Shown here: piece after piece, positions 885 to 57,551 of the stretch
How positions within the stretch are numbered: position 1 is the first letter of the stretch
Layout: every line of letters starts with the position of its first letter
Source: Azolla caroliniana
Taxonomy: Eukaryota; Plantae; Polypodiophyta
Direction: 5' to 3'
NCBI GenBank assembly: GCA_043228905.1
Contig: JBHGNT010000004.1
Span: forward strand, 5,394,001 to 5,458,000
Length of the DNA: 64,000 nucleotides
Position numbers and translations under genes: made by a program
Notes under the pieces: generated by a model
What the model was told of the DNA's origin: nothing
Seen by the model: only the letters and a program-made list of their open reading frames with translations
The model's database searches: none

Positions 885-888
885 TCTT

Positions 889-906: not shown

Positions 907-928
907 AGAGGCGGCAGAAGAGCAGAAG

Positions 929-6525: not shown

Positions 6526-6579
6526 AGACGGGCCGGTTTTCTCCGTCCCAACTCTCTTGGCGCATACCGGAGGATGCGC

Positions 6580-6596
6580 GGTTAGGTGGGGGCGGA
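6580..6596 (+). promoter_or_regulatory. G1 polypurine tract
   Basis: GGTTAGGTGGGGGCGGA immediately before the 3' LTR; similar tracts in G2 and G3. Confidence 0.75.
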
Positions 6597-25400: not shown

Positions 25401-28400
25401 TGTCACGTTGTTACACACATGCATGGAGAACGAGGCAGGACAACCGAGGCCTCGGACCGAGAAATAACCGAATGAAGGGAGGGGAAGGACTCTTACGATG
25501 TAATTCACACACGCACAAACCCACAAAATCAAAGGAATTCCAATTAGCTATAGAACGCCAGATGGAGATAGAACGAACGTTTATGTATGTATATATAAAT
25601 CAAGGTGTTCCAACCGGCAAGCTGGCGAGTGATGGGCACCGACGCCTACGTGCGCGCACACACACACACACACATAGAACACGAGATGGAGACTCTGCCG
25701 GTAGCACTTGGGCGTCCTGCGGAGAAGAGTCCGCCTCCCAAAACCTGCACAGAACAATTAAAGGGGAGACGGAGGAGAGGAGAAGGGCTTGGTCCCTGTC
25801 GAGCAGCACTTCGTCCTCTGCTAAAACGTGATATATTTTCAATACCTCTCCCTCTCTTTTATAGCCTATGGAGAGAGGTCGTTACCATCCATCATATCAT
25901 GTTTATTCCCTATCCTTTCGGAAAGGGATACGCCTCAATTCTCTCCCTACTGAATGCGCGCTACTTAGGATTTCACCTCGGGCAACTTGTACCTACCTAC
26001 GAACTATACAACAAAACTTGTGCCCACGTGTAAGGGCCGGTTTATGCACGTTATACTCGGTTTCCGCTTAGGGACAGTTTTCTCCACGACATCCACCCCC
26101 CCCTAACCGTGCATCCACCGGTATGCGCCAAAATGAGACTCCTACCGGAGAATACCGGCCCACGCTTATCGTTCGTCTTCCGGATCGGCATCCGTCCCAA
26201 CCGGTCGTTGTCGCTATCCGGGTCGCCCGGGTCCGGTTTAGCCTCGTGCCGCTTTTTGAAGGCTTTGATCCTCTTCCCCGCCACCGGTACCGCCATCCTT
26301 GTCCCGTTGAGCTCTGCGAGATGGTAGGTCCCATTGTTGTTGGCACTTGTCACCGCATAAGGCCTGAACCACCTTCTTGCAAACTTCCGCGTTGCCCAGT
26401 GTTGGTTGTCGAGGCTGATGTCATACACTAGAACCCAGTCGCCTTCCTCGATCTTTTTTGGTCTCAGTCTGTGAGTCTGGTCGAACCGTCCTTTGTTCTT
26501 TACCCTCGCCACCCGTAGCTTCTCCGCGGCTCAATCCACGTCCTCCGGTCTTCGTTCCAGCTGCCGAATTTGTGCCGCTAACAACTCCTCCCCGCTCATC
26601 TCGTTGTTCCAATCCACTGTGGCCCACGAGGAGATTGTCTGCTCCGTTGGCATGATCGGCTTCTGCCTGTACATTAGCTCTGCCGACATGAACCGGTTAC
26701 CGAATTGTGCGTAGTTCAGTCCGCCCACAACGCGTAGGGTAGGAGTCGCGGCCAGTTCCCGACTTGGCCTCCACATGCCCGTACTAACGCTTTGACAATC
26801 GGCCCATGTCCACGCTCCACCTTCCCGTTGGCCTCCCGATTGTACGCCGCGGTGAGCGAGAGTTTAATTCCTAGCCATCCAAATAGCTCTTCCACCTCTT
26901 GCGTGTCCAATTCCCCGCGGTCGGCCACGATCTTCCCAACGCACCCATACCGACATACCACTTCTTCGATCAGAAATCTGCACACGGCCACGGTCGTTTT
27001 GCTCTGCAACGCTCAGCCTTCCACCTCATTCATCAGGTCCTCCCGAGCCAGCACCAGATACCGCATATGCCCTACCCCCGTCGGCATCGTCACCAGATCC
27101 ACCATCCACTTGAAGTGGACAGTCGGAGGGTAGGTTGGGTGGAGCTCGTCCCGATGTCGGACTATGGAGTGCACTTGACAACTTTTGCAAGTTATCACGA
27201 ATCGATGCACGTTCCGGTATAGTCCCGGCCACCAGCACTTCCCCTTTAGCTTCTCGAATGTGGCCCACGTCCCGCGGTGTCCGGCCCAAGGACTCTCATG
27301 GTACGCTGTCAGCAATTCTTCCTGTTCCTCTTTCTTCGCCACTACTCGGAGCGGGATACCGCCTCTCTTCTTCGGGTGCTTCGATATGCTCCCATCCCGT
27401 AGAAAGAATCGGTACGCTTTCTTCCGAATCCGGTTTGCCTCTTCTTTCGTCCATGCCGCGTCTGGTGTCATTGCCTTCAGGAACCCGCCGATCTGGAGCC
27501 ACTCGCCGTCGTACTTGCTCTCGTCGAATTCGTTAAACGCCGAAGTGCCCCCCTTTCTTGTTGTTACGTTGGCTGACCCGATGAAATCTTCGCCGACTTC
27601 CTCGTTATCTGAAACCATGTCGTCCTCGTCACTGAAACGCGCCCTCGAAAGCATATCGGCCATGGCATTATCTTTTCCGGAGATGTGCCGTATCTCCGGG
27701 TTCAAGGACTTGATGTACGCGATCCACCTGAGCATCGCCAAGTCCGGAGTCGCGCATCCGGAAACCATACCTAGAATCGGTAGGCAGTCCATCTCGATGA
27801 TCACTTCCGTCCCGATCAAATAGTCCTTGTCGGCCTTGACTGCCGAAGCGATACCCCAAAGCTCGCTTAACTTGGGAGTATCCTCGCTGCCGCTCGCTCA
27901 ATACCTTCGCCCCGAACCAGATCAGGAACCGTACGTCGCCCTTGTCCTCCTAACTGATTACCCTCCCGATCCCGGTCGGGCTCGTGTCCACCATTACGCA
28001 GATGGGGACTTCCTTGTCGTAAACCGCTTTTCGAAGAGCCGGTGTCGTGGCAAGCGCCTCCTTCATCCTCCGGACCAACTCCGTGGGCTCTATCCTCCAC
28101 TCGAACCTACGCCCTTTCTTCAATAACCCGTAGAGCGGCTCCGCGGCATGCGCGTAGTGCGGAATCCAGATGTGGTAGAACGCGCACGCCCCCAAGAATC
28201 TGCAGACCTCCGTAACCGACCTGCAGTCGTCCTTCATCGCGGAGATGGCTTCTACCTTCGCCGGGGACGGTTTACGGCCATAGGGCCCACACAGGTGTCC
28301 GACTACCGGGATCTCCAGCTGTCCGAAGGCTGATTTTTCTCCAGAGAAGGTGAGCCGCGCGCTCTCGAGTCTTTGTAGCACCTTCTTGCAGTCACGGATG

Positions 28401-31400
28401 TGGTCCGTCACGAACCTCCGGCAACCGTCGGGCCCGACAGACTCATCCTTGTCCTCCACTGGACATCCTTTGATTGGTATGTCATCCAGAAATGGCATGG
28501 TGATGTCCGAGATGCAGTCCCTCAACACCTTGTTCATCGCATTCACAATGTGCGCCACCGAGTTCGTTCCTCCTTGCGGCAGCATACACATTCGAACTAG
28601 GTCGAGAGGAGTCCGCATCATCCTGACATCCCTGCTCTCTACGGCTAGTTGGAACTTATCGTACCCTGAGTACAGATCCCCAACCGAGTAGATTTACCTC
28701 CCTGCAAAGGCCTCCATGAACTCATCGATGGTCGGTCTGATACCTGCGTTTCGAATGGTCACCTTGTTGATCGGCTACAGGTCCTGTATGAAGCGCAGTG
28801 TGCCGTTCTTATTCGGCACGGTAAACCACCGATTCGAATATGGGGCACTCGACGGTTCGAGGATGCCCATCTCCACCTTCTGTTTCAGCAGCTCCATCAG
28901 CTTCGGGATGTGAACTCTGGGTACCGGAATCGGCATGAGATTCCACGGCACATGTGGTACCGTGAAGATCACCATCGGTTCCACAACCTTCGAGTCTACG
29001 CACCCGATCTCCTCCGGTGAGAATGCAAAAGCTTTCCCGTGCCTCCCGAGCATTCTCCGAAACCGGTCCTCTTCCGCCGGCAGTAGAAAACCGCCCCCAC
29101 CAATCTTGAGCTCCCGTAGCGTTATGTCGGTGAACGTGTGTCCTATGCTGACCGGATCTCGTAAACTTGGCTCCGATGTGACCCCCTTTATCCGTAACTC
29201 GCTACCCTCTGGCAAGGGTGCCGCGACTAGCCTAACCTTCCGGTCCACAATCTTGTACTTAGTATCCACTCGGGTCGTCCGATCCGACTCGAGTCCACTA
29301 CTGAAGTCGGCGATGACTTCGTACATCCTTTCCGAGCATACCGGAATCGTCCGGTCCGCATTAAGGCCTTCTCCGAACACCTCCCGTAACTTCCCCAAGG
29401 TGTCGTCGAAAGAGACCGCCTCCACGGCTCCGCTAATTTCTTTTTCAAGCTCGACGACTCCGCATGCCCAGAGTCGCTCCTCCGCCCATTTCTTTTCCCG
29501 GCCTACTACGCCGGCTACCGTACAACCACCGCTATCAGAAAACCAAAATTTCCTACCTATGGTACAAGTCTTTTCGCCTATAGTACATCTGTGGGGTTTT
29601 TCCGAGGTATTTGGACTATTGCGGCCCCACACCTTGATAGCCCTCTCTAAAAATCCTCTCGGTTTTCGGCACCGAGGGTCTCGCGGTTATGCTCATGGTT
29701 TGGTCGCACCGTCAGGAACTAGACCGAGTGACGCCCATCCTAGCTCTTGACTCGTGCATATGCCGAACCGTTGTCTAGCACCTTTGTCTCCATGCGCGCC
29801 GCCGTGATGTACGGTTCTCCGAGTATCACCGGATGCAAGGACGTCTCCTACACAAAGAAGTGTTGGTCAATCTCGACGTCGCCGATTTTGACTCGTACAT
29901 TCGGGCAGGCTCCGTGTAACTCTTCCGTGGCACGCGTTGCTGCCCGTATCTTCCACCCGTGCTTGGTGTTGATCGGCCACTTTCCCTTCTTGTAGAAGTC
30001 CATGGACATCAGGTTGATCTCTGAATCGTGGTCTACCAACGCTACTACGGGCTCCTGAACATCCCCGATCTGAACAGGGGTTTCCGTAGTGGCCCTAGCC
30101 CAATGTAGCCTCGAGTAGTGGCTTTCCGCCAACTCGTCCTCCAGGGCCATGTCTTCTAGGTGAGTCGTTCGCACCTCCACCGGCTTCCCTGCCTCCGGTT
30201 CCGTTGAAAGCCTTTTCCGCTTTACCAAGTCTACAATGGAGTCGTGGAATTCCTTCTTGGCGATACCGAGCACTTCCCTTAGCGACAACTCCACTTTGTT
30301 GTCGAGGATCCGTTCCTCCAGGACCTTCCATAGGTCCGTGATCCTTTCGATCTCCGTGCTCAACCGATAACCGGCCTTCTTGGCCTTGTCCGGCGCGTCG
30401 GATGCACCTACATCACTCTGCTTCGGCCCGAACCAGGTCTCATACCGTTGCGAGGGTTCGGCCCCCTCGATCTTTCCCGCTCGCTTGTCTTCCACCAAAA
30501 CCTCGTAGTTCTGGCACGTGGTTTCCACGAAGCCCATCTTCTCTTCGACCGGGTCACTCCACCCGGTTACCTCCCGGACCCGTCTTTCCGCGCGGTCCGC
30601 TTCCTCTTTCCTCAGTCATACGCTGGTGAGGTCTTCCAGCACCACTGGCCAGAATCCGGCTTCTTTCGTCTTCCGGTCTTCATCGCTTCCGACCTAGATT
30701 CCAGCCGACGCCGAGTAGTGGATGGTCTCCGCGTGACGAGCCGCCACTTCTTCCATCAGCCGTTTCATACCCCCTCGTCCGACATTTAGATCCAGGGCCC
30801 TCCAGGTCTCACTAGCGTGCACCCGACCGTTCCATAGGTACACCACGTTAGCATTTATCGCTTCGGCGAAATCCCCGCAGTCCTTTCGGGCGTGGCCGAC
30901 CGCGTCATGCCACAAGCACCAGTTCCCAGCCGGAGGCCTTCGATCGTGGACTTGTTCGTCGCCATCCCTCTGTGCTTGCGCGATCTGGAGGTCCCTCACC
31001 ATCTAAGTCAGCTCCTCCAAAGCCACTCCTCCGGACGAGCCTTTGACCATGCCGGTTGAAGTCGAGTCGGTCTCGGGTCTCTCCCCTTCGCGCCGGTGGG
31101 GGTACCTCGACCTTCCTTGTCGCAACAGAACCTGCCCCCGTCGAGCCTTTATCGACCCACTCACGTCGTTTGTCAAAGCGGCCGCAGACTCTCTTTACCA
31201 TGGCCCAATTGGTTGTTAGGCCGTCATCGGTCTCTAGCAGGAAGCCCACTTGCTCCCGGTCCCTTGCATCCACCGATTTAACAAACAATAGGACACGACT
31301 CGTGTCCAGCACGGTCCGGTCCAGCGCCGAAAGTCATGCGAAGTGTTCTCCAAACTCCCGAAGGAGCACCGATATGTTTCTCCCCTTTTCGGGGTCTCCA

Positions 31401-32496
31401 CCCATTCCATGAAGTCTCTCTTGGACAGCCGGAGCGTGTCATCAAGCCTGTATTTTTCAAGGAGCCGACCTTCAAACTGTTCCCAGGTCCGACGCTCAGC
31501 CCGTACCTCAAGCACCTCCGTGTGGATGCCCGGCATCACCACCCGAGGGAATCCGGCCAGTCGCCTGTCCTTTGGGATGTCCCTCATCACCATTTCGGCT
31601 CAGTAGGCCTCCAAATAGCTCGTGGCGTCCTTCCCACAGAACCGGCCTATCGTGCCAACGACCGCTTCAATAGCCCTATCGAGGGCGCCTATGCCTTCGC
31701 GCGCATTCACTATCTGATCCACACCCGAAGCCATGGCTTTTGCAAGATCCGACCCTCTCATCTTTCTATTCCTCTGTCGCCTTTTCACATCAGGTTCACC
31801 AAATATGTCGCGTTGTTACGCGCGTACGTGGAGAACGAGGCAGGACCACCGGGGCCTCGGACCGAGAAATAACCGAATGAAGGGAGGGGAAGGACTCTTA
31901 CGATGTAATTCACACGCGCACAGACCCACAGAATCACCGGAATTGCAATTAGCTACAAAACGCCAGATGGAGACAGAATGAACGTTTACGTATGTATATA
32001 TAAATCAACGTGTTACAACCGGCAAGCCGGCGAGTGATGGGCACCAACGCCTACGCACACGCACACACACACACACACACAGAACGCGAGATGGAGACTC
32101 TGCCGGTAGCACTCGAGCGTCCCGCAGAGTAGAGTCAGCCTCCCAAAACCTGCACAGAACAATTAAAGGGGGGACGGAGGAGAGGAGAAGGGCTTGGTCC
32201 CTGTCTAGCAGCACTTCGTCCTCTGTTAAAACGCGATATATTTTCCATACCTCTCCCTCTCTTTTATAGCCTATGGAGAGAGGCCGTTACCATCTGTCAC
32301 ATCATGTTTATTCCCTGTCCTTTCGGACAGGGATACACCTCGATTCTCTCCCTACTGAATGTGTGCTACTTAGGATTTCACCTCAGGCGACTTGTACCTA
32401 CCTACGGACTATACAACAAAACTTGTGCCCACGTGTAAGGGCCAGTTTACGCACATTATACTCGATTTCTACCTAGGGACGGTTTTCTCCACGACA
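25401..32496 (-). mobile_element. Degenerate full-length gypsy G3, G1 relative (4-bp TSD ACGG)
   Basis: 691-bp LTRs at 31806-32496 and 25401-26091; PBS TGGTGAACCTGATGTGAA at 31784-31801; ACGG at 25397-25400 and 32497-32500. Confidence 0.95.
26170..31761 (-). pseudogene. G3 gag-PR / RT-RH-INT pseudogene
   Basis: Fragmented ORFs closely match G1 proteins (MRGSDLAKAMAS, LPQGGTNSVAH, FLDDIPIKG, integrase), with many stops. Confidence 0.93.
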
Positions 32497-39000: not shown

Positions 39001-39753
39001 GAGGTGAAGGCAAGTACCACGAAGCGGATTCATCGAACACGACATCTCGACTTACACGTACTTCCTTTGTTCGGGGGTGATAACACTTATACCCCTTCTG
39101 CTCGTATGGATAGCCGACTAAGATGCACTTTTCGGCTTTGGCGTCCAGCTTCCTCCTCTTTTCCTTCGATACGTGTACATATGCAATGCTACCGAAAATC
39201 CTCAAGTGTGCCAAGTTCGGCTTCTTCCCGAAATACAATTCATGTGGCGACACTCCTCCATTAGCAGAAGTTTGATTCTGCAGGTATACAGCCGTCCTCA
39301 CGGCTTCGGCCCAATAGAATTTCAGCATATGCTTCTCTGCAAGCATTGCCCTGGCTGCTTCTTCGATTGTCCAATTCTTCCGCTCGGCCACGCCGTTCTA
39401 CTACGGTGTGTATTTTCATGAGAATTCACCTCGAATTCCCTCCTTCTGTAAATAACTTGTGAACTGGTCGGAGAAGTACTCCTTCCCGCCATCGAACCGT
39501 AGGCATTTGATCTTACGCCCTGTTTCCCTTTCCGCGAGGCTCTTCACCTTCAGGAAGCATGTGAAACCTTCGCTCTTCTTCGCGATCGTGCATACCCACG
39601 TGTGCCGAGTGAAGTCGTCGATGAAGGTTACAAAGTAGCGGCTTCCACCGAGACTCACGTTTTGTGCCGGACCCCACACATCCGAATGGATCAAATCCAG
39701 TGGATTTCGACTACGATTACACTCGTTGGGGAATGGAAGTCAGTGTTGTTTTC
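36040..39753 (-). pseudogene. C5 integrase-RT-RNase H pseudogene
   Basis: IHSDVWGP, FDGGKEY, QMDVKNAFLQG, YTDSDWA, RTKHIEVYYH; interrupted by a solo LTR and by G4. Confidence 0.92.
36644..37321 (-). mobile_element. Copia-type solo LTR (TSD GATAT) in C5 RNase H
   Basis: TG...CA, 678 bp; GATAT at 36639-36643 and 37322-37326; starts TGTTGGGA like C1/C4 LTRs. Its removal restores TEAEY|RGATVATCE. Confidence 0.87.
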
Positions 39754-40253
39754 TGTTAATCGACTAATTACTAACTACTACCGATACAGAAGAGTGAACG
39801 TCGCTACTCAACGTTCTAACAAGGAATTGTGTTTTACGAACAGAAATATACTATATTAATTGGTAATTACCGTGATCGTTACTTAGTTATAAATTAGGAA
39901 GATTGCACTTAACAAAATAGACAATAGAAAGAACACAGAATCCGTACATGATATTCCTAACTTAAACTTATATTACTAAATAAACGACCTTTCTTACAAT
40001 GCCTTCGGTTCCCTTTTATAGGTATACCGAAGGTCTTTTCTCATCAAGAACTATTCCTACTTACTATCAAGAATTACAGAATTATCTAACTAACTCAGTT
40101 CTCTTCGTTCACTACTGAGTCATCGATCCGAACAGTCGCTCCGAACCGACTCCGTTTTCAACGCTTTCCCACTTGTTCGGTAAAACTGACTGTCCGGGTC
40201 CGGGTAACACTTGGCACGTCTGTGGGCCAGGACCTTGTCCAGCGAACCCACGC

Positions 40254-43112
40254 CTATTCCTGTAGCTCTTCATCCGAATCGTTCAGAATATCAAAAATCG
40301 AAGGCTCTTCTGGCCTTGGATGTATTCCATCTATATCTTCCTCTTCATCTTCATCTTCATCTGTGTCACAGTCGTCATTCGGAGCAGGTTTTGAATGTTG
40401 TGATTCGGTTGGTTGCTCTGGTTCACTTATTCCGGGAGCTTGAAGAACAGGAGTCTTGCTGGTTCTTTCAGCTTCGATTTTATCCAACTGGACGGAAGTG
40501 CCTATATCATTTTTGTCGAATTCTTGCATAATACGTTGAATTTCTTCTCTGTAAAATGCCGCAATTTCGTCCATATCTTTCATGATATCCTCTTGGATAT
40601 TGTCAATATCCTTTTGTGCCATTTTAAAAAAACCTGCACCTTGGACCTGACGGTTATTTTTGTCGGCACGCAATAACTGTAATTCCGCCGCTTGTGCCGT
40701 CCATAACTTCCATCCTTGCGCAAGGGATTCGTCGATCATTTTCTTTGCTAGGTTTCGATGTTTCCCTATGATGTGTTGCACTTTGTCCTTAGTGATGCTT
40801 GCGTCGAATTGAGCGGCTTGCAACTCTTTCCGTAAATCCGTAATGGTGGCTCGGTTTTCACTTTCAGCCTGCATTAGTTTGGATTCGACTACATATATGT
40901 CCAGCCGCCTTTGTTCCGATATCTTCCGGATTTCGTTCAGTTGTTGTTCGAATGCCGATTTCTCTTTGCTCCATTCCTCCTGCTGTTCCGTAATTCTTCT
41001 GTTGACTTCTTCAAGACTCCGCTCTTTTTCTGTCAATTGACTTTCCTGTGACACTATATACCTTTCGAATTCCTCAATTTGTTCGGTATATGTATGATTG
41101 GCCGTCTTAGCTTCTTCCAGATTTTTCTGTAATTCATTTATTAATTGATTTTTTTCTTCGAGAACTTTGTATTGGCCATTCTGAATGGTTTCTATTTGTT
41201 TTTATAATTCTGTAGTTCGAAATACAGCATTGTTGGCCCTTGTTGTTTCTGCTTGACGTGCTTTCTCGGCGTCCTCCAATTTCTGCTGCCATTCTGACTC
41301 TGACGCCATAGGTCATGTCTGTGTTTCCGATTTGTTTAGACTTTCTTTTAGTTCTTTATTTTCTGTCTGTATGTTACAAAACTGACGTTTCAGCACCTCC
41401 GCCGATGCTTATACACTTTTGTATCTTTCAGCCATATCACTGCCTGCTTTGCGTGCCTTTTCATATTCTCTATGAATTTCGACCAGTGCTTCATGTAATG
41501 GTGGCATTTCAATAGCCTCCCCTCTATTCTGTGCATTTCTTTTCCGGCCGATTTTCTCTATCTCTGCTTTTTCTTGAGGTTCCAACACTCCTCGTAAGGA
41601 CTTCTGTATCATTATTCGGTCATGATGTTCTTGAGCCAGCCGTTCTGATACTTCTGTCAATCTTCTATGAATTTCGACCAGTGCTTCATGTAATGGTGGC
41701 ATTTCAATAGCCTCCCCTCTATTCTGTGCATTTCTTTTCCGGCCGATTTTCTCTATCTCTGCTTTTTCTTGAGGTTCCAACACTCCTCGTAAGGACTTCT
41801 GTATCATTATTCGGTCATGATGTTCTTGAGCCAGCCGTTCTGATACTTCTGTCAATCTTCTATGAATTTCGACCAGTGCTTCATGTAATGGTGGCATTTC
41901 AATAGCCTCCCCTCTATTCTATGCATTTCTTTTCCGGCCGATTTTCTCTATCTCTGCTTTTTCTTGAGGTTCCAACACTCCTCGTAAGGACTTCTGTATC
42001 ATTATTCGGTCATGATGTTCTTGAGCCAGCCATTCTGATACTTCTGTCAATCTTCTAGCCAACCATTCAACCAGTTCGTATGAAGTTCCGAACTGTAAAA
42101 TGGCAGCTAATTCATGTGCTGCTGGTGGAATATCCAAGCACCCATGTGCTTCCCGAATTGCTACTTTTGAAGATTGTCCTTGTTGAAGTTGTGTCGAAAC
42201 GCTCTCATTCCCTGGTTTTATTACTTCTGTTACTACAGGCGTATTCGAATTTTCCTTTGTGCGTTGCCTTTTCGGTGCTGACTCATCACTGTTTTCTTGT
42301 TGGAATTGCCGATTAGCCTTTTGTTTAACCCTTGTCCTTTGTGGCATCTTCTCTGCTTGTTGTCGATTTTCTGTCGACTGCTGCTTGTTTATCAAATGGT
42401 CAACTGTTTCTTGTTCGGCTGCTGGTTGCCTGTTTTCGGAATTCTCTGGTCTTGGTGGTTCCGACTGAGGCATTTCCGTTTGTATATTATCGGCATGTGC
42501 CGATTCTTCCTCTATCCATTCTTCATGTGCTACCTGTCGGTGTCTTCGAGGTGCTTGTACTATCGGTGGTCTTCTTGACTGAACAGGAGTTTCTGATTCT
42601 TGAATCGGAAACAATACCGATAGCCAACGACCAAAAATTTGCTTCATTGGTTTTCCTGTTTTTACCCCTTGTAGCTGCTCTCTCAGAGCTTCCCCCGACA
42701 ATAGTGGCCAGTTGAAATCCTCTTTTTCGTATGCGGCTATGATAAACCCAGCCCTTTTTTTCGGCATACGATAAAAACGGGGACTGACAAATCCCACCTC
42801 TAGTAAAAATCTAGCCACTTCATGGAAAAACTCATCCCGACCTCCATAAGTCTGATATGCTTTTGCCGAGGGTGAGTATTCTCCGAAATACAATTGGAGT
42901 GCTTCTGATGAAGGTTTTTTAACTGCATCAAAGCCTCCTCTTGGCATCTGTAATGCATTTCGTATTTTCTTTGTGGTGACCTTGGTGATGTCTAATTGTT
43001 GTACCAATTCTTCCGCCTGCGGATGAGGTTCCGCTTCTGCTACTTTGATGAAACCTTGTAAGTTTCTCTCATGAAGCCACAGTCGCAGTTTTTCAGACAC
43101 AGGAATCGGCAT
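40254..43112 (-). pseudogene. G4 extra ORF (~953 codons, coiled-coil-rich, acidic tail) with four in-frame stops
   Basis: ORFs 41919-43391, 41409-41897 and 40254-41054 share one frame; stops at 41919, 41409, 41313 and 41202; likely start MPIPVSEKL at 43112. Confidence 0.8.
41468..42057. repeat. 195-bp (65-codon) tandem repeat x3
   Basis: TATGAATTTCGACCAG at 41471, 41666 and 41861; units nearly identical. Confidence 0.95.
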
Positions 43113-43510
43113 GACTTCTGTGTTTGCTTGTTCTGAATCACTTGTCGATGACGGTTGGAAATCTGCACAGCTTCTGTAGCGATGAAAATCAGAAAAACAG
43201 AGTTTGGGCGAGCTAGGGCACGAAGGCTCAGAATGTTTCGAGATCTGCACTCGTTTCTGTTGCTTTGGCGACACAGAAGATACAGAAATATGCTTTAAAG
43301 ATATTAACTTATGCATTATGACTAAAGAATAGTAATTGCTATTAATGTAGGAATTAATTAGTATTAACTCTACGTGTAGTGGTTGTACCACTTACTAATA
43401 ATAATGCAATTCCTCTTCCTATTTATAGTCGATTCAGACTGTTATGGCAAGATTCTATTTCTGCATTGACAAGAACTTCTTCTTTTTTTTTCTTTTTTTT
43501 TCTTTTTTTT

Positions 43511-46500
43511 TTATTCTTCCGTTTGAATAAACGGGTTTACCGGCATATCTCCCAAATACGGTTTAAGCCAGAATCCATTTACCCATTTCGGTAAAACCTC
43601 TCCGGTTAATGATCCCAGCTGATACGTACCATTTTTACTATTAATTATCCATACTGGACCTGTCCATCTATACCGGAGTTTCCCAGGCATAAGTCCCATT
43701 TTCGTCTGGAATACCAATACCGGTTTCCCAATTTCGAATTGCTCTTCCGATTTCCTTCGATGTCGATTTACGAATGCCTTGATTTGTCTCTGCTTGTGTT
43801 CTAGTGCTGACATTGATTGAATCCGTTCTTCTTCTAATACTAATAAAGCCTCTTTGCGTATCTGCTCCGATTCTATTTCATTTAACTTATTCGTCGCTTG
43901 GATACGAAGTGTCGGAATTTGAAATTCGATCGGCATAACAGCTTCAAGTCCGAATGCCATTCGGAAAGGTGTTGATTTAATGGATGTTTTGTACGAAGTA
44001 CGATATGCCCATAATGCACTATTTAACTTTTGATCCCAATCAGTACGATTTTCATTCACTATCTTCTTTAAAATTGTTTGAATTGTTTTATTTGTCGATT
44101 CTGCCAATCCATTAGCTTGGGGATAGTAAGGCGTACTTTTCTTATGAACTACGGCATAATAATTGGTTAATTCGTGAATTAACTTGTTAATAAAATGAGT
44201 GCCTTGATCGCTTACCAATTCTATTGGGCAACTGAATCGACACCATATATTTTCATACAGGAATTTTGTTGTGGATGCTGCTGTATTGTCTCTGAGAGCT
44301 TTTGCTTCAACCCATTTTGTGCAATAGTCAGTCGCAATTATGATATATCGATTACCGGTTCTTGCAGCTGCTGGTTTGAATGGGCCAACAAAATCTAAGC
44401 CCCATTTCTGAAATGGCTCAAGAGGTAAAACCAGTTGAAAAGGCATTCGATCCTTTTCGGTCGGTTGCCCCATTCTTTGACACAAATCGCATTTCTTACA
44501 GTATTCGTTAGCATCTTTCATCACCGTTGGCCACCATAACCCGCTATTCCATATTTTTCTGGCTGTTGCTTCTCCTGCGTAATGACCGCCAGCAATTCCA
44601 CAATGTGACTCTGTTAATATGGCTAATTTTTCAAATTTCCGTACTGCCCTTCGCCATATTCCATCCGCTCCTTTATGATACAACATGTCATTAAATAAAC
44701 AAAAATTTTGACTTCGTACTGCAATTCTTTTTCTTTCATCTGTCGACATGTGTTCGGCCGGAATTCCTGTTGATAGAAATATCGTCATTTCGGAAATCCA
44801 TTCATCCTCTTTTTCCTCATTCATTTCTTGTGCTTTTACTGCCTCAACCCGAAATAATTGAGTATCTGGAAAATCATCTTTAACACCAACCGCTTCTTCT
44901 CCAGATTCAAGCCGACTGAGATAGTCAGCAATCGCGTGTTGTGCTCCTGGTCGATGTATAATGTCGAATTCAAACTCTTGAAGCAATAACGTCCATCTGG
45001 CTAACTTGCCTGTCAATTCTTGTTTGGAAACTAGATACAGTAGAGCCGAATGATCCACATGAAATGTAAATTTCTTACCCAAAAGGTAATGTCGAAATTT
45101 GTTCACACTATATATCATTCCCAAAGCTTCTCTTTTGGTTGTTGAATAGTTTCTTTCAGCCGACGAAAGTTTCCTACTGGCATAGTATACCGGCCTATAC
45201 CAGTTTGGTTCGGATAATTGCATTAAAGCACTGCCTATGGCAATGTCCGACGCATCAACGAAAACATGAAATGGTTTGTTCCAGTCCGGTGGTTGGACTA
45301 CCGGAACCTTTGTCAGCATCTTCTTGAGACATTCGTATGCATCTTGTTCTATACTTGTCCATATAAAAGGAACTTTGTGTACTGCTGTGTGTAACGGAAT
45401 AGCAATGTCTGCTAGATATCTAATCATTTTACTGTGCCACCGAATTTGACCCAAAAATCTACTTAGAGCTTTAGCATTTGTCGGTGGTGTTGCCTCAATA
45501 ATTGCTTTAACTTTGTCCGGGTCCACTGCAATCCCTTCTTGACTGACAATATGCCCAAGTAACGTACCACTCATTACTCCGAATGCGCATTTGGCTGGAT
45601 TTAAGCTAAGACGCCCTTTTCGACATTTTTCTAAACATAGCCGTAAATGCTCAAAATGATCAGCTTTCCGACTATATACCGCAAAATCATCTAAAAACAC
45701 CTGCATGAAAGCTGGAATATATTCCCCGAATATTTCCTGTATTACCCGCTGAAATGTAGCTGGAGCTGTTTTTAAACCGAACATCATTACTACTGCCACA
45801 AAGACACCCCATTCTGTGACAAAAGCTGTCTTTTCCTGATCTTCCGGATTCATCCGTACTTGGTTGTACCCATTGAACCCATCCAAGAAACTATAAATTT
45901 CATGTCCAGCTACTGCATCTAATATCCCATCTGTGAATGGTAACGGAAACGCATCCGTAATTGTCGCTGCATTCAATTTTCTGTAATCCACACATACGCG
46001 AATTTTCCCATTCTTTTTCGGAACTACTACTATCGGACTCAGCCATGTTGATTTTTTGACGGGTCGAATAAATCCTACTTTTAAGAGTTTATCGATTTCT
46101 TCTTTTACTTTGATAGCATAATTCGGATTCAACCTGTACCTGCGTTGTTGTACTGGCTTTGCATCTTTATGCAAATTGATTTGATGTTGACAAAAAGCGG
46201 GATCCAGACCTTTCATATCGTCAAACGACCATGCAAAAACATCTTTATATTGTAATAGTAATGTTGTTAATGTCCGTTTGTCATTTTCCGCCAAATCTCT
46301 AGCAATCAAGACTGTTTTTCTTTCACCATCCTCTACTCCTGCCAAATCGATCTCCTCTAATGTTGAGGCTTGCACTCTCTGAGATACCTTCATTTCCTTA
46401 TCTGTAGCTTCTTGTTGCATTCGTATTTCTTTCATTGTTTGCTCATCTATTGGCACTTCTTTGTGTGAGTCTACATATGGTGTTAATGCTTGCAAAATAT

Positions 46501-48553
46501 CTACCTCAAATAGAGGGATGATTTTCTGATTATCATTAAAATACTGACTTTCTTCTTCCTCGTCCAATCCTTCCATCATATTAACTGCTTCTGCATGTAC
46601 AGGTAAACTTTGTTTGCTTGTTGTCACTTTGTTGTGCGTCGGAATCCTGACCTTAGTTTTTCCTTTCCTAAATGTTAGCACATTTTGTTTCCAATTTTGT
46701 TTGATATTAGCTGTCTTTAACCATGGTCTCCCCAATAACAAGGGGTATGCTCCCTGTGCTTCTAACTGCAAAATTACTGCCAAAATCTGAAAACTGTGTC
46801 CCCCGATTATTACATCCAGTTGTCGAAGCAAACCAATCGGTCGTACCGTACTTGTATCTGCCATTCGTAACCAAAACGGACATGCTTCCCATTCCGTGAT
46901 TCCTAGTTTTTCACATGTAGCTTTGTTAATCACATTAACTCCCGAGCCTCCATCTATAATCACATTTCCGATTTCTTGCCCGTAAAGTATTACCTTAATC
47001 GACGGATTCTGTTCATCCATGATCGAAGGGTTATTACTTGGCTGATTGTAGTGTACTGCTATTTGTTCGGAACCTTTATATGCAATTAATGCTGCCACTT
47101 TTTTTGTAAACCTTGGTACTAACTTAAGTAAGCCCGTAAGTGGCAATGACACTTGGCAATCAGCCAACAGTTTCCAAGTTTCTTCCTGTTCCTTATTCCC
47201 CAATGACTGTTGTACAGCGATGTTCTGGTCAATGTTATTGTCTTGTAACATTCGATTCACATTACTTTGATTTGCTTCGTCAACCCATTCTTTTGCCGCC
47301 TTCCGAACTGCTTCCTGAATTTCCCATTCTGATTGTTTGCTTTTGCTGCGTGTCGTTACTTGCTGAACTTCCGGTATTACCATATTAACTGCTGGACCCT
47401 TTCCTTTAACCGGACATTGATTAGCATAATGGCCTAGTTTTCGACAAATATAACAAGTGGGTACAAATGTTCCACCGGTCTCTCCATGTGCAAATTGGCC
47501 GTTATTAAATTGCTGCTCTTCATTACCACTCGGGTTTTGTTGGAATTGACGTGTAGCTTTTGGTTTGTAAAATTTCTTATTTTTATACCGATTCTGCCTA
47601 AATTGTTCGGTATTATCATTTGGTTGTGCTACATTTTGTGTTATCCCGGACTCCTGATTTGGCGGAAAATTATTCTGTTGAAACATTTGATTATTTTGTG
47701 GAAAGGTTTGAGTATTATGTTGAAAGGTCATATTACCCGGTTGAAATGCCGGATTCGGTTGAAATGCAGAATTCGGTTGCACATTCGGACAGTTCTGTTG
47801 AAACCCTTGAAATGGTGGGTTACCTTGTTGGAAACTTTGATTATTTTGTTGAAAATATTGATTCGGATTCTGTACGAATGGTGGGTTGGATTGAGCAAAA
47901 CTTGGTTGAAATGCTTGAGTTACTTGAGTGGGTTGCATATTTTGTTGTGAAAAGATCTGATTTGGCTGTAGAACCGGATTTTGTTGAAAAGTTGGATTTT
48001 GTTGTACATTTTGCTGATTTTGTGAAAAATTATTATTTTGATAACCATTGAACAGATTAGTGTTATTTTGGTAACCATTGTCAGTAAAAATTTGTCGTAC
48101 TGACGCCGTAGTTTTATTAAGCAGATTATATTCACATTGTTCTACTGAATGTAATTTTGAATGACATATTGTACAATGTGTTCTTAACGTACATTCAATT
48201 GCCGAATGCCCCGTATTTAAACAAGTGGTGCATTGAACTGCTTGATGAAATTGTAACTCCTCTATTGTTGGTAATGTACGTTGTAATGCCGACATGTCCA
48301 TACTCTGAACATTGACCAGTGGTCGACCCATTTCTATTGCTTTATCAATTACTTGTTCGATAGTCTGATTTCGAAAATCGAACACTTTCAATGTCGTCCT
48401 TAATGGTTCTTTTACAGCTTCTAGAAAGACTTCTTTTAATTCATTATCCGGAATCGGCCTTGAAATCTGAAGTTGTAAGTTTTGAAATCGTATCACAAAC
48501 TGAGATACTGTTTCATTTTTTTCTTGATATAACGCATAAAATTGCGCAATCAA
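43511..48553 (-). CDS. pol: G4 Gag-Pol (1680 aa open; N-terminus up to ~49021 disrupted)
   Basis: Three CCHC knuckles; PR IIDGGSGVN; RT FGLKTAP..FLDD; RH VDASD..VDH; integrase WGLDFVGP..SDQG..E. Confidence 0.92.
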   Translation of the reverse strand: MIAQFYALYQEKNETVSQFVIRFQNLQLQISRPIPDNELKEVFLEAVKEPLRTTLKVFDFRNQTIEQVIDKAIEMGRPLVNVQSMDMSALQRTLPTIEELQFHQAVQCTTCLNTGHSAIECTLRTHCTICHSKLHSVEQCEYNLLNKTTASVRQIFTDNGYQNNTNLFNGYQNNNFSQNQQNVQQNPTFQQNPVLQPNQIFSQQNMQPTQVTQAFQPSFAQSNPPFVQNPNQYFQQNNQSFQQGNPPFQGFQQNCPNVQPNSAFQPNPAFQPGNMTFQHNTQTFPQNNQMFQQNNFPPNQESGITQNVAQPNDNTEQFRQNRYKNKKFYKPKATRQFQQNPSGNEEQQFNNGQFAHGETGGTFVPTCYICRKLGHYANQCPVKGKGPAVNMVIPEVQQVTTRSKSKQSEWEIQEAVRKAAKEWVDEANQSNVNRMLQDNNIDQNIAVQQSLGNKEQEETWKLLADCQVSLPLTGLLKLVPRFTKKVAALIAYKGSEQIAVHYNQPSNNPSIMDEQNPSIKVILYGQEIGNVIIDGGSGVNVINKATCEKLGITEWEACPFWLRMADTSTVRPIGLLRQLDVIIGGHSFQILAVILQLEAQGAYPLLLGRPWLKTANIKQNWKQNVLTFRKGKTKVRIPTHNKVTTSKQSLPVHAEAVNMMEGLDEEEESQYFNDNQKIIPLFEVDILQALTPYVDSHKEVPIDEQTMKEIRMQQEATDKEMKVSQRVQASTLEEIDLAGVEDGERKTVLIARDLAENDKRTLTTLLLQYKDVFAWSFDDMKGLDPAFCQHQINLHKDAKPVQQRRYRLNPNYAIKVKEEIDKLLKVGFIRPVKKSTWLSPIVVVPKKNGKIRVCVDYRKLNAATITDAFPLPFTDGILDAVAGHEIYSFLDGFNGYNQVRMNPEDQEKTAFVTEWGVFVAVVMMFGLKTAPATFQRVIQEIFGEYIPAFMQVFLDDFAVYSRKADHFEHLRLCLEKCRKGRLSLNPAKCAFGVMSGTLLGHIVSQEGIAVDPDKVKAIIEATPPTNAKALSRFLGQIRWHSKMIRYLADIAIPLHTAVHKVPFIWTSIEQDAYECLKKMLTKVPVVQPPDWNKPFHVFVDASDIAIGSALMQLSEPNWYRPVYYASRKLSSAERNYSTTKREALGMIYSVNKFRHYLLGKKFTFHVDHSALLYLVSKQELTGKLARWTLLLQEFEFDIIHRPGAQHAIADYLSRLESGEEAVGVKDDFPDTQLFRVEAVKAQEMNEEKEDEWISEMTIFLSTGIPAEHMSTDERKRIAVRSQNFCLFNDMLYHKGADGIWRRAVRKFEKLAILTESHCGIAGGHYAGEATARKIWNSGLWWPTVMKDANEYCKKCDLCQRMGQPTEKDRMPFQLVLPLEPFQKWGLDFVGPFKPAAARTGNRYIIIATDYCTKWVEAKALRDNTAASTTKFLYENIWCRFSCPIELVSDQGTHFINKLIHELTNYYAVVHKKSTPYYPQANGLAESTNKTIQTILKKIVNENRTDWDQKLNSALWAYRTSYKTSIKSTPFRMAFGLEAVMPIEFQIPTLRIQATNKLNEIESEQIRKEALLVLEEERIQSMSALEHKQRQIKAFVNRHRRKSEEQFEIGKPVLVFQTKMGLMPGKLRYRWTGPVWIINSKNGTYQLGSLTGEVLPKWVNGFWLKPYLGDMPVNPFIQTEE

Positions 48554-49536
48554 ATCCTTCTGCGGAATTTGTCAATGAAATAATTGTAAAAATTTACTAG
48601 TTAACACTTCAAAGGATGGAAATCCTTGAAGACCGTTCTGCGCAAACCAATTGGCGGAATATCCGTCTAATGATAAGACGAACTCAGCGATTTTTTACTT
48701 ATCTTCGGCATCTGCCGACAATCGCTGAGCTCCATGGTTAATCTCCCATGTCGTTAAGAAATCCCTAACATGTGCTTCCGCATCTGTTCCTTCCCGGAAC
48801 TTAGAATAAGTATAAGGCATATCGTCCCAAATGTCGTAAAACGATACCTCTTCCGTCTGTTTTTCGTCTGAAGGTAATTGATCGGATAAGTCAGGAAGTT
48901 TCGACCACTTTGTGCTTGATTCCGACTGTTCTTGCGCAATGAACGCTTCCTACACTGCCTTCGTAACTGACCTTGTACGAGGGCGCTTACAACCGACCGG
49001 TGTCTCCTCTTCAGACGACATCCATTCGATTTGTTCTCTGCTTAATTGCAGATGTAACCGGGCGTGCCAAATTTCTTCTGTGTTAATCGGCTAATTACTA
49101 ACTACTACCGATACAGAAGAGTGAACGTCGCTACTCAACGTTCTAACAAGGAATTGTGTTTTACGAACAGAAATATACTATATTAATTGGTAATTACCGT
49201 GATCGTTACTTAGTTATAAATTAGGAAGATTGCACTTAACAAAATAGACAATAGAAAGAACACAGAATCCGTACATGATATTCCTAACTTAAACTTATAT
49301 TACTAAATAAACGACCTTTCTTACAATGCCTTCGGTTCCCTTTTATAGGTATACCGAAGGTCTTTTCTCATCAAGAACTATTCCTACTTACTATCAAGAA
49401 TTACAAAATTATCTAACTAACTTAGTTCTCTTCGTTCACTGCTGAGTCATCGATCCGAACAGTCGCTTCGAACCGACTCCGTTTTCGACGCTTTCCCACT
49501 TGTTCGGTAAAACTGACTGTCCGGGTCCGGGTAACA

Positions 49537-51053
49537 TTTTCCCATCTGGCAGGCTTCACAGACTTGGCCATTCCGGCCTTCAAATTTCGGCAAGCCGAAC
49601 ACAGTGTTCCCCGTCTGCATTTCACAAAGCCATGGGAAGTTAATATGGCCGAACCTCTTATGTCACAGGTCAATGTCCGACTCGACCATCTGCCCTTTCA
49701 CAAACATAGCGGTGCCCACATTGTTGGTTTCGAGGATAAAAATCCTCCCTTCACGGCGCCCTTGCGCGATTACTTTGCCTTCCTCTTCTATGAAGCACCC
49801 TAGATGCGTGAATCGAACCTACATTCCCTGGTCGACGATCTGACCGACCGACACCAGGTTCTTCGTTATTGTCGGGACGTGCAGCACGTTCATGAGTTTC
49901 CCTTTCTGCCTGACGTGGCTGAGGGGAACTTCGTCGACATGTTCGATGGTATGCGGAGTGTCGTCTGTCGTTTCGACCACTCCTTGAGATTCCGGTTTCT
50001 CCAAGTACGAGAATCATTCCTCGTGACTCATCATATGATTTGACGCTCCGGAATCAACATACCACACCTCGCTCAATTTCGAGGTGTTCACGGCCATAGA
50101 ATTGGCCTTATGCTTCATTACAAAGGTAGGGCCTGATCCATTTCCAACTCGTTCAAAGTCCTCAGCTTACTGCGACTTTTGACGCCTCTCTACATCTCTT
50201 TGGCTCGATCCGGCTTTGTCCGAATCGGCTCTCTTTTTCCAACACTCGCTCTCCTTGTGGCCTTTCTTGCCATAGTACTAGCATTCCGACGCGGCCTTTT
50301 TTTGTTGGTTGCCGATGTTGCCATGACTCCCCCTGCTTGGGGAGGGTCTGGAACTGTTGTCGGCATTTCGATTATGCCGCTTGTTCTACTCTTGTCGGCT
50401 GCCTCCATTGCACGCCCATCCACCTCGTCCACCATGACCACGGGGCCTATCTTCCTCCATGTACAACATCTTGCTGTCAGCGTGCGTACTCGTCGACGCA
50501 CCCGTATGGTTTTCGTCTACGAGCAACATCGATTGAAGCTCGAAAAACGAAGGCGTATTCTCCCTCGTACAGACTGCCACTCGGAATGCTCTGAACCTGG
50601 ACGCTAGCCCACCAAGACACACTTGCACCATCTCGTCCTCCTCGACGTTCACATTGACAGAGGCGAGTGAGTCACAGATTTCCTTGATTCGGGCCGTCTA
50701 ATCGGCCACAGACAGATCTTTTTGCTGGACATTGTTGAGCTCTTGCCTGAGTTGCAGCTTCTTGGCCGTTGTGCTTGCGGCGAAAAGCTTTTTGAGATTC
50801 GCCCACGCGTCCTTTGGCGTCTTAGCATCCCGAATATAGCTCAATAGTTGGTCGCTCACATAGGATGCAAAGCAGTAGAGAACTCTTCTTGCCGCTTGTT
50901 CCCAAGATGAAAAATCTTTGTGTGTCCAATCGGGTGCTACATCATTAGCTCCTTCGGCATAACTCCAGTAGCCGTGATCGAGCAGGTACTGGTGCATCTT
51001 GTACGACCCAGATGCGTAGTTGCTCCTGTCGAGCTTCCCATTCCTCTGTCCAT
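49537..51053 (-). pseudogene. C5 gag-protease pseudogene
   Basis: KLDRSNYASGSYKMHQYLL, EEDEMVQVCLGGL and WYVDSGASNHM, with stops and frameshifts. Confidence 0.9.
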
Positions 51054-53895: not shown

Positions 53896-56800
53896 GTCCA
53901 GCCAAAATCGGAGCCATTTGGTTAGACAGCCCTAGGCATGTAACGTCCGTCCCTAGTTGCGGTTCCATTTCATCCGTTCAAGTTAGTCGAGTTTTCTCTA
54001 CACAAGTTGAGCTTAACACATCTAGGTGCCATCAAGTCCCAGCTTCTGCCCTCTTAGACTCTGGAGCCAACTCTTGTTTCATGAATCGTGAGTTTGCTAT
54101 AATGCATAATATTCAATTGCATAAGCTCCCAAGCCCAGTGTTAGTCAGAGTCATTGATGGACGCCCCATAGCATCAGGTGATATAGTTGAAGAGTCTGAA
54201 CCAATTCATGTAGTCCTAGGCAATTTGGCTAGTGTCATCTCATTCAACATCATTAGTAGTCCAGAGCACTCCCTAGTTCTTGGTCTTCCATGGTTTGAGC
54301 TACATAACCCAACTATTGATTGGAGAAAAAGAACCATTGAAGAGGTCACAATACAGTCTGAGCCTCTTAAAACTCCAACAAAGGATATGACATTCCAAAA
54401 GATTTCGACAATCTCTATACATCAATTACATGAGGAAGGACGGAAGGAAGACATGTTGGTGTTCGCAGTTTTAGCAACTCCCACATCGAGCTCACAAGAA
54501 TGGGGGCTCCAACCACCAAAGAAATATATAGAATTCTCTGATGTGTTTGATAAGGTGAAGGCCAATAGACTACCAGAACATCGACCATATGATTGCCTGA
54601 TTGATTTGCAGCCCAGAAAAGAGCCTCCATGGGGGCCAATTTATAACCTTTCACCCACGGAGTTAGAGGTTCTTCGGGAATATATCGATGAGAACTTGGC
54701 GAATGGGTTTATCCAGCATTCAAGATCTCTTGCCGGCATACCCATATTTTTCGTTAAGAAGAAAGATGGTTCGCTTCATTTGGTCGTGGATTATCGAGGA
54801 TTGAATAAAGTAACTATTCGAAACCGATATGCTCTACCATTGATTTCGAGCCTTCTCGAACGCCTCAATGGAGCTAACTATTTCACAAAGTTAGATCTTC
54901 GAGGTGCTTACAATCTTGTTCGAATTCGTCCTGGGGATGAATGGAAGAATACTTTCCGTACTCGCTATGGCCATTTTGAGTATACAGTGATGCCATTTGG
55001 TCTCACGAATGCACCAGCAGTTTTCCAACATATGGCGAATGACATTTTTCGAGATTTCCTCGATATTTTCGTCATAATTTACCTGGATGATATCTTGATC
55101 TACTCAAAAACTGAAGAGGATCATGATATACATGTTCGACAAGCTTTGCAATGGTTGCGTGAATATGGTCTCTATGCAAAATTGGAGAAGTGCAGTTTCA
55201 ACCAGCGTCAAGTGGAATTTTTGGGGTACATGGTCTCTTCACATGGCATCTCTATGGATCCAGTAAAGGTTCAAACAGTTTTGGATTGGCAAACACCACA
55301 GTCTGTGCGAGATGTACAATTTTTTTTAGGGTTCGCAAACTTTTATCTCAAGTTCATCAAAGATTATTCAAAGATCGTATTGCCCCTCACTCAACTGACA
55401 TAGAAGAATCGACCATTTGTGTGGAGTATAAATGCAAACTCTGCATTTGAAGGATTAAAGCAAGCATTTACATCTGCACCAATTTTGATGCATGTTGATC
55501 CATTGAAGCGCTTTATACTAGAAGTTGATGCATCCAACTTCGCACTAGGAAGCGTATTATCCCAGATTAGCAATGATGGCCAACTGTACCCTGTGGCTTT
55601 TCATTCACGGAAATTCGAAGCTGCAAAAATCAACTATGAGATTCACGACAAAGAGCTTCTTGCCATTGTGGATTCTTTTCAACAATGGCATCATTTTTTG
55701 GAGGGTTCGTCTCAACAAATCATGGGCTATAATGATCACAAAAATCTAAAGTACTTCCAAAGTGCTCGAGTCTTGAGTCGTCGACAAGCTCATTGGGCGC
55801 AGTTTTTAACTCGTTTTGATTTCGTAATTCTATATCACCCTGGGATGCAACAAGGCAAAGCAGATGCTTTATCTCGGCGTTCATATATGGAACTTCAACG
55901 AGGAGAGGCCACATTTGAAAGTCAGAAGCAAATCCTCTTGGGTCCTGGCCGTCTACGACTAATGGCTTTTCATGCTATAGATACACCCAGGGATTCAAGT
56001 CTTCTGGACTCCATTCGGAAGCATATTGAGACTGATGAATTCGCCCAAGATATTCTGAACCATATTATCCCAGATCGTGCTTCTTGTTCACAATCTCAAA
56101 ATCCTCGTCAAGACTACAACCAGTTCGATTGGCATGATGGTTTACTTTTTCGACAAAATCTCTTATATGTGCCTAATGGTCCTTCTCGACTCCAAGTCTT
56201 GCAACAATGTCATGACACACCAATGGCTGGACATTTTGGCATCCACAAGACTTTGGCGTTAATTTCTCGAAGGTATTGGTGGCCACGACTTCGCCATTTT
56301 GTTACGGGTTATGTTCGTAGTTGTGATACATGTTGCCAATCCAAAAAACCTCGACATCATCCATATGGCTTATTACAGTCAATGCCTATTCCTGAGAGTC
56401 CATGGAAATCTATTTCATTGGACTTCATTACGGATCTACCACCTTCCAAGGGTTTTGATTCTATTCTCACGGTAGTAGATTGTTTTACCAAGATGGCACA
56501 TTTTCTTCCCTGCACAAAGGCCATTACGAGCCAAGAGATAGTCGAGTTACTCATGCGAGAGGTGTTTCGGCATCATGGTCTTCCTGATGATATTATCAGT
56601 GATCGGGGTCCCCAGTTCATCTCAAAATTTTGGCGGCACATGTTCAAACTCTTACATACTTCTTGCAAACTCTCTTCCAGCTACCATCCAGAAACTAACG
56701 GACAGAGTGAGCGCACCAACCAAACAGTAGAACAATATCTTCGTTGTTTTGTCAACTATCAACAAGATGATTGGGTTGATCTATTACATTTGGCGGAATT

Positions 56801-57551
56801 TGCTTACAACAACTCAGAACATTCTTCTACTAGATATTCCCCATTTTTTGCAAACATTGGGTACCATCTTCGTTGGACTATGCTTGAACATCACGAACTC
56901 CCGACAAACCCGGTTGCTGAAGATCGGCTCACCCGACTCCAAGAAGTTCAAGATATCCTTTTGCACCATTTATGTGATGCTCAAAACACTCAAAAGAAGG
57001 TTGTCGACCGTCATCGACGTGATTCATCGACTACGTTTCAAGTGGGAGATCGAGTATGGCTTTTACAAGGTCGCATTAAAACAACCCGACCTTGCTGCAA
57101 ATTGGATTATCAACGTTTTGGCCCATATGTGATATCTGGTAAGATCAATGATGTGGCATTTCGCCTTGATCTTCCCCCTCATATGATGCACCTTCACCCG
57201 GTCTTCCATGTTTCACTTTTGGAGCCGTACACAACCAACTCTATTCCATGCCTTCTTACATCTCCCCCACCTCCAATCGAAGTTTCAGATGGCTCCGAAT
57301 ATGAAGTTGCTGCCATTCTCGACTCCAAGATCGTTCGCAACAAACTATATTATTTGGTTGACTGGTTAGGTTATATACCTAATGATCGAAAATGGGAACC
57401 TCTTGAAAATCTTGCTAATGCCTCCGAAATGGTTGTTGCGTTTCACAACAAATATCCTCATAAGCCAAGTCCGAAATCTTGTCTTCCGACTCGTGGAACT
57501 CATCGTCAAAAAGGGGGGATAATGTCAGGACGACATACATTTTGGCCTTAG
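53883..57551 (+). pseudogene. pol: G5 Pol (PR-RT-RH-INT-chromodomain) in -1 frame, one stop at 55401-55403
   Basis: LLDSGANSCF; YLDD; VDAS; SLDFI..SDRG..E; chromodomain EYEVAAILDSK..YLVDWLGY..WEP. Slippery-like G TTA AAC at 53883-53889. Confidence 0.92.

Follow-up and report, generated by a model that had tools for sequence, protein, structure and literature searches.

According to the cited portions of the work on Ty3 (PMC5371799) and HIV-1 (PMC13191261, PMC13332604), canonical LTR retroelements use a host tRNA bound at the primer-binding site (PBS) and a polypurine tract (PPT) for the plus strand, and PPT priming counts there as the general rule among retroviruses and LTR retrotransposons (PMC5371799, PMC13191261). 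Bipartite binding of the tRNA is also described in these portions, in the form of the split PBS of Ty3 (PMC5371799) and the primer activation signal of HIV-1 (PMC13191261), as is a stop of reverse transcriptase (RT) at m1A58 when the tRNA primer is copied (PMC13191261). For Athila-type elements, the cited portions of the literature (PMC6317226; Diaspora and Calypso, PMC1142308; ATHILAfinder, 10.64898/2026.03.20.713144) give a spacer of 3-6 nt before the PBS, and the Athila PBS matches tRNA-Asp, Asn or Ala (PMC6317226, Additional file 5).

The element described here, G4, is a Ty3/gypsy LTR retrotransposon on the minus strand of a 64,000-nucleotide stretch of Azolla caroliniana DNA, the whole of which is called the window below. 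It occupies positions 39749-49541 including its target-site duplications (TSDs), and the named relatives of its RT come from ferns and liverworts, with approximately 50-60% identity, which makes a non-seed plant the likely host. Its features, in element order, are as follows.

49537..49541, minus strand: 5-nt TSD on the 5' side, identical to the 5-mer at 39749-39753
49081..49536, minus strand: 5' LTR, 456 nt, TG...CA, with 6 differences from the 3' LTR
49070..49080, minus strand: 11-nt spacer between 5' LTR and PBS, seen in 28/28 copies read among 30 loci and kept in the LTR-LTR junction of the copy on C16
49057..49069, minus strand: PBS, a 13-nt match to the 3' end of tRNA-Arg(UCU), supported by host tRNA genes and by copies with a longer tRNA-exact PBS or read-through
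43511..49021, minus strand: gag-pol with Gag, zinc knuckle, protease, RT, RNase H and integrase (Pfam and translation)
41409..43391, minus strand: ORF2 region, an extra sense ORF that ends in a 195-nt triple tandem repeat
40254..41201, minus strand: ORF3, coiled-coil-like with an acidic end, its stop directly adjoining the tail
40243..40251, minus strand: 5' block of the tail, equal to tRNA-Arg(UCU) positions 49-57 (5' strand of the T arm and T loop) by sequence identity
40227..40242, minus strand: tail hairpin of 6 bp with one bulged T and a 3-nt loop, supported by covariation and sitting where tRNA A58-U60 would pair
40212..40226, minus strand: 3' block of the tail, equal to tRNA positions 61-76 minus one C and ending in CCA; its copy in minus-strand DNA is an inverted primer-binding site
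40210..40211, minus strand: 2 nt between CCA and LTR, outside the LTR as judged by the TSD and still present beside the tRNA copy in the C16 junction
39754..40209, minus strand: 3' LTR, 456 nt, starting at 40209
39749..39753, minus strand: TSD on the 3' side, matching the 5' side

The window copy of G4 carries two stops in the N-terminal gag part of gag-pol. A Pfam search of ORF2 gave no match and the Atlas gave only a lead, PMD/DUF1985 at 0.86. The triple repeat at the end of ORF2 is in frame (window 41469-42057), and the distance from integrase to LTR is about 3,300 nt in this copy versus about 2,900 nt in most others. G4 is nested within a copia-type element; an element of family B at C2:12.0 Mb is likewise flanked by copia sequence (family labels B-F were coined in this analysis).

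G4 is like canonical LTR elements in its TG...CA ends, 5-nt TSD, order of RT, RNase H and integrase, and tRNA-primed minus strand. The features of Ty3/gypsy elements found in it are the LTRs, the TSD, the protease-RT-RNase H-integrase order and a tRNA PBS after the 5' LTR; the PPT that would adjoin the 3' LTR was not found. Pfam detected no chromodomain on its integrase, while a neighbouring element at 55404-57548 has one. The lack of a chromodomain, the lack of a visible additional RNase H (aRH), the extra ORFs after pol, the 5-nt TSD and the length of about 10 kb are shared with Athila and other OTA non-chromoviruses as far as the cited parts of REXdb (PMC6317226), PMC1142308 and 10.64898/2026.03.20.713144 describe them, and so is an AT-rich spacer that separates the PBS from the LTR. 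However, G4 differs from Athila in a spacer of up to 11 nt, in short LTRs, in a PBS that matches Arg(UCU) or Arg(UCG) across its lineage, and in the absence of the conserved PPT-LTR junction that described Athila elements have. With Tat, Ogre, TatIII and Retand it shares a tRNA-Arg PBS and extra ORFs (PMC6317226, Additional file 5), but it has no PPT, and no additional RNase H was seen between RNase H and integrase; approximately 115 aa separate these domains, and Pfam gave no match to a second, archaeal-type RNase H at E <= 1. Phygy and Selgy have a 4-nt TSD, a Trp or Ala PBS and no extra ORFs, in contrast to the 5-nt TSD, Arg PBS and two extra ORFs of G4. Judged by its sequence, G4 is therefore a Ty3/gypsy non-chromovirus with Athila-like anatomy that departs from Athila in its PBS and missing PPT, and from Tat in showing no aRH. 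In an RT tree that held no labelled Athila row and in which one row filled 37% of the columns, the sampled families with a tail grouped together (100/99).

The initial annotation had claimed that G4 has no PPT and that a mimic of a tRNA 3' end occupies its place, and both the absence and the sequence were borne out. The nearest run of at least 8 purines ends 126 nt upstream of the 3' LTR, and the last 15 nt before this LTR contain 9 purines without a G run; in five other LTR elements of the window, the corresponding 15 nt contain 10-14 purines with G runs of 5-8. Two related Ty3/gypsy elements of the window (118-7363 and 25401-32496), whose RT is 23-25% identical to that of G4, have a normal PPT. 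The gap between the ORF3 stop (40254) and the 3' LTR is filled by 44 nt at 40210-40253, which read as annotated, end in CCA 2 nt before the LTR, and have a predicted fold of -13.4 kcal/mol. In the window the tail pattern matches once, against a shuffle mean of 0.02, and 2 of 100 shuffles reached one match; in the genome, 839 sites fit the gapped pattern and no site fits its reversed control. The shuffles and the reversed control together rule out a chance origin of the tail.

The tail was kept in all 30 loci found by similarity to the tail region, a set that is biased because it was picked with that region itself. A second set was picked by integrase alone (125 matches, approximately 98 of them at >=95%), and here the tail was present in 17/17 G4 copies that reach a sense 3' LTR, the other 3 of the 20 fetched breaking off earlier. 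Among relatives at 78-86%, it was found in 14 of the 20 fetched (of about 27), and 6 end before the tail position. Loci with a long Arg PBS have the tail downstream in 6/10 cases and no visible 3' LTR in 4/10. In metagenome contigs, at least 123 stretches match the pattern, 73 of them distinct and with many different LTR starts, although the 80 record ids inspected belong to one accession series and are not many independent samples. Contigs too fragmented to reveal junctions cover the tail bin in 4/4 runs from four organisms; the viral contigs searched gave no relative and three unrelated chance matches. A private rearrangement of the window copy, which the initial annotation had named as a possible refutation, was rejected, since other copies carry the tail and have no PPT. 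The tail is real and lineage-wide. Its CCA stands at a fixed distance of 2 nt from the left LTR end, or of 4-5 nt in some families. Short elements with a PBS and a tail but no G4-like coding match between them were also seen (G000:C3:10313428, C2:6955431 and L112), and it is likely that such non-autonomous derivatives keep the two-site system.

Comparison with the host tRNA-Arg set, which had been proposed as a check, gave tRNA-Arg(UCU) as the match. The host genome carries tRNA-Arg(UCU) genes at 5 of 10 loci (L061, L065, L066, L067 and L070), and the tail equals positions 49-57 of this tRNA, the hairpin, and then positions 61-76 lacking one C, so that it covers 49-76. The window copy carries a minority G>A change (3/30 loci), and 26/30 loci are one base nearer to the tRNA. 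A CpG of the tail reads CA at 493 sites and TG at 125, which are numbers of copies and not of events and have no neutral CpG control; CA preserves a G.T wobble with the tRNA on minus-strand DNA and TG does not. A true mismatch 8-9 nt from the CCA end was found in 5/17 G4 copies. By RNA energy parameters, here applied to an RNA-DNA hybrid, the last 28 nt of tRNA-Arg(UCU) pair with the minus-strand copy of the tail in two blocks at -38 to -50 kcal/mol, and the other Arg tRNA at -29 to -36 kcal/mol.

The fold predicted in the initial annotation, an outer GTGGG/CCCAC stem around an inner stem, was recovered as described, but only its inner part is supported by covariation. Among 69 distinct 40-nt tails, a set that excludes tails of other loop lengths and whose relatedness inflates the figures, 5 of the 6 pairs of the bulged inner hairpin are changed on both sides (for example, 37 G-C versus 29 U-A and 34 G-C versus 32 A-U). 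This covariation score was reached by 0/500 shuffles, and slid pairings drop to 30-46% paired. The outer, T-stem-like helix showed no compensatory change among these 69 tails, in a test in which 3 of its 5 pairs were fixed by the search pattern. At positions 59-60, hairpin pairing outranks tRNA identity in G4, D and C. The sense tail folds at -11 to -18 kcal/mol, and G.U pairs in the hairpin are slightly more frequent on the sense strand than on the minus strand (11 versus 5 and 6 versus 4), which suggests that the hairpin may act in RNA.

Traces of the tRNA itself, here called fossils, were searched with the exact tRNA-Arg(UCU) end together with CCA and the base that the tails lack. This gave 30 matches, against 0 for the control, and most of them proved to be PBS sides; "CCA + 2 nt + TGTT" was dropped as a sufficient mark of a left end, and a left end was counted only where a tail, a TSD or a PBS further on confirmed it. 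A search allowing one mismatch gave 18 matches, of which six belong to the events at C16, C2:12.00 and C2:12.74, two are new left-end events (L390 and L395), six are PBS sides (L382, L387, L389, L391, L394 and L396), two are tails with an extra base (L386 and L393), and two fall in none of these classes (L388 and L392). Altogether, sense tRNA-Arg(UCU) sequence of 17-60 nt with CCA is joined 2-5 nt before a verified left LTR end in six separate events.

G000:C16:17.53 Mb, G4: exact last 18 nt of the tRNA
C2:12.00 Mb, family B: 57 nt, in three tandem duplicates, one of which leads into a full family-B element
C2:12.74 Mb: 54 nt
C3:8.09 Mb: 18 nt and a piece of the anticodon arm
C6:16.78 Mb: 60 nt
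C20:0.88 Mb, B-like: 17/18 nt

The C16 event is a full G4 copy with three tandem 5' LTRs and a TSD around the whole unit. Its junctions consist of the LTR end, the spacer, a T, 18 tRNA bases, 2 nt and the LTR start, and since the two junction units are identical they were counted as one event. The 18-mer stops just before A58 and differs from the tail of that copy. Both of the G4 LTR-LTR junctions found (2/2) carry the tRNA sequence and not the tail sequence. tRNA copies ending at A58 and a 2-nt overhang at the left end are also known from canonical elements in the cited portions of PMC5371799, PMC13191261 and PMC13332604, and tRNA sequence is retained at left ends of the G4 lineage as, according to the same sources, PPT sequence can be at HIV U3 ends. 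The fossils are rare by-products. They indicate that the tRNA was copied at the left end and do not by themselves establish priming, since a template switch of the growing minus strand onto a bound tRNA would yield the same fossils even with another primer.

Read-through of the first-strand tRNA, 39-56 nt long, follows the right LTR ends at L090, L092, L087, L402, L407 and L412, and its stop points may record tRNA modifications. The G4 copies with a longer tRNA-exact PBS or read-through are L090, L092, L095 and L099. At L111, a tRNA 18-mer adjoins mid-pol sequence, and this resembles the outcome of priming or switching at an incorrect position. In three further cases (L078, L079 and L088), an 18-nt PBS is fused directly to the reverse complement of the tail, likely by second-strand transfer to the wrong, mirror site. 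A TSD-bounded element at G000:C3:8.087-8.095 Mb (L107+L108, 5110-12714), inserted in the anticodon region of a tRNA-Phe gene, belongs to one family and carries an inverted family-B interior; this interior is joined at its PBS to the reversed B tail, and a tRNA copy serves the element as its own 3' tail.

The sister families separate the two sites. Among 11 sister-family regions, three PBS-bearing 5' LTRs of B and C were found (L115, C2:12.0 Mb and L132), and the PBS of all three is complementary to tRNA-Arg(UCG); one short element in the same regions has an Arg(UCU)-like PBS, and the rest have no usable 5' LTR end. Families B and C thus have an Arg(UCG) PBS, yet keep the Arg(UCU) tail, and the tail-PBS pairing is -9.4 kcal/mol in B and C versus -18.0 kcal/mol in G4 (RNA energies). 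The fossils of family B and its kin are split in the same way: those at right ends are Arg(UCG), 39-41 nt long (L402 and L412), and those at left ends are Arg(UCU). Therefore, Arg(UCU) reaches the left end even where the first-strand primer is another tRNA. No other observation speaks as strongly against an origin of these joins from the first primer, or against tail-PBS pairing. In four of the six fossil events (C16, C2:12.74, C3:8.09 and C6), Arg(UCU) is or may also be the first-strand primer. At L388, an Arg(UCU) 17-mer is attached to a leader of the UCG type, and no LTR was recognised next to it; tRNA-Arg(UCU) may thus sometimes act at the PBS of UCG-type families.

The reading that we favour, with a probability of about 0.8, is that an inverted tRNA-binding site replaces the PPT and that a second host tRNA-Arg(UCU) would prime the plus strand on minus-strand DNA. 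A second tRNA-Arg annealing to minus-strand DNA had been among the possibilities raised in the initial annotation; the left-end fossils and the two-tRNA split support it and point to Arg(UCU) as the tRNA. After first-strand transfer, RT would copy U3 and the tail, and RNase H would remove the RNA. The tRNA 3' end would then pair with the exposed DNA over 10 nt, one bulged C and a further 5-7 nt, and the freed T-arm strand would pair with the second block, the hairpin being looped out over A58; the HIV primer activation signal holds its tRNA in a similar manner. Common to the G4 site, this signal and the split PBS of Ty3 is that two contacts hold the tRNA, one at its 3' end and one at a second block, which in G4 is predicted to lie in the T arm; the difference is that the sites of Ty3 and HIV-1 are on RNA and serve the minus strand, whereas the G4 site would lie on minus-strand DNA and be used for the plus strand. 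RT would extend from the CCA end through the 2 nt, the LTR, the spacer and the PBS. RNase H would normally clear the tRNA, and integrase would trim the 2 nt. If removal failed, the minus strand would copy the primer up to m1A58 (18 nt) or beyond, leaving fossils. The hairpin may bridge A58 and position the T-arm block, or it may aid clearance of the RNA. The site would be passed on through RNA alone and never corrected from the tRNA, which fits the fixed one-base gap. The G4 lineage differs from canonical elements in lacking a PPT, and its left LTR end would be set by an inverted tRNA site.

The initial annotation had also taken the 2-nt offset as normal integrase processing. This holds for the left end, where the 2 nt are likely the overhang trimmed by integrase, but not for the right end, where the PBS stands 11 nt from the 5' LTR. 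The spacer probably belongs to the right end of the linear DNA before processing; LTR-LTR junctions retain it, so that an unusually long stretch would have to be trimmed from the right end.

Since the left LTR end is tied to the CCA that closes the tail, the primer is either the tail RNA or a tRNA bound to its DNA copy. In the former case, corresponding to the RNase H-resistant mimic of the initial annotation, the hairpin would protect the tail RNA, which RNase H would cut after CCA in the way it would cut a tRNA primer, and the tRNA fossils would be by-products of template switching. This would account for a covarying hairpin that may form on RNA, for its precedence over tRNA identity at positions 59-60, and for the stable fold of the sense tail. 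However, failed removal should then leave tail sequence, and the junction found, albeit a single event, holds tRNA; the left-end fossils of family B are from a tRNA other than its first-strand primer; the G>A bias in the tail fits tRNA pairing; and there is no clear reason for identity with one tRNA once the PBS has switched to another. We regard this explanation as unlikely. The fossils, the two-tRNA split and the 493:125 wobble-compatible CpG outcome favour a tRNA as the primer.

If a tRNA is the primer, it need not be a second, complete molecule; its role could fall to a 3' piece of tRNA-Arg(UCU), or to the first-strand primer, freed by RNase H and reused in cis. Three fossils that are exact over just 17-18 nt would suit this, as would the binding of the same tRNA at both sites of G4. 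Nevertheless, three other fossils extend 54-60 nt into the tRNA and call for a long primer, and in B and C each of the two sites has its own tRNA, which excludes reuse as a general mechanism; we consider this very improbable. Pairing of the tail with the PBS, by which the RNA would be circularised, as the initial annotation had also suggested, or the minus strand self-primed, with the plus strand beginning at an unnoticed site, is harder still to credit. Such pairing comes to -18.0 kcal/mol in G4, and the fusions of a PBS to an inverted tail show that the two sites can meet, but the tails of B and C pair poorly with their own UCG-type PBS, which contradicts this explanation in those families. 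It is also at odds with PBS copies corrected to the tRNA sequence, which point to a tRNA-primed minus strand, with the rarity of C>T, the change that would suit the pairing, and with the position of the left LTR end relative to CCA. Given the two-tRNA split, neither pairing of the tail with the PBS nor renewed use of the first primer can hold as a general explanation.

Priming by a second tRNA-Arg(UCU) is probably, though we hold this with some more reserve, a property of the whole clade. Its members would use two host tRNA primers and no PPT. A dedicated tRNA-Arg(UCU) would be loaded on minus-strand DNA at the two-block site split by the hairpin, whichever tRNA primes the first strand; some families have changed to Arg(UCG) for the latter. 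Because the two sites mirror each other, inverted interiors of other families could also be captured and integrated.

In the openly accessible literature that we searched, no description of an inverted PBS replacing the PPT was found, and the tail likely represents a priming route that is new for an otherwise known type of element. If so, a clade without a PPT has been successful, with at least 839 matching sites in one genome. It would also follow that a tRNA can serve RT as the starting point for synthesis on a DNA template, with no need for RNase H to carve out a primer. Small tRNA fragments would gain a second predicted target in the replication cycle. Furthermore, because such elements have a PBS-like motif at each end, annotation tools that expect a PPT may miss or mis-orient them.
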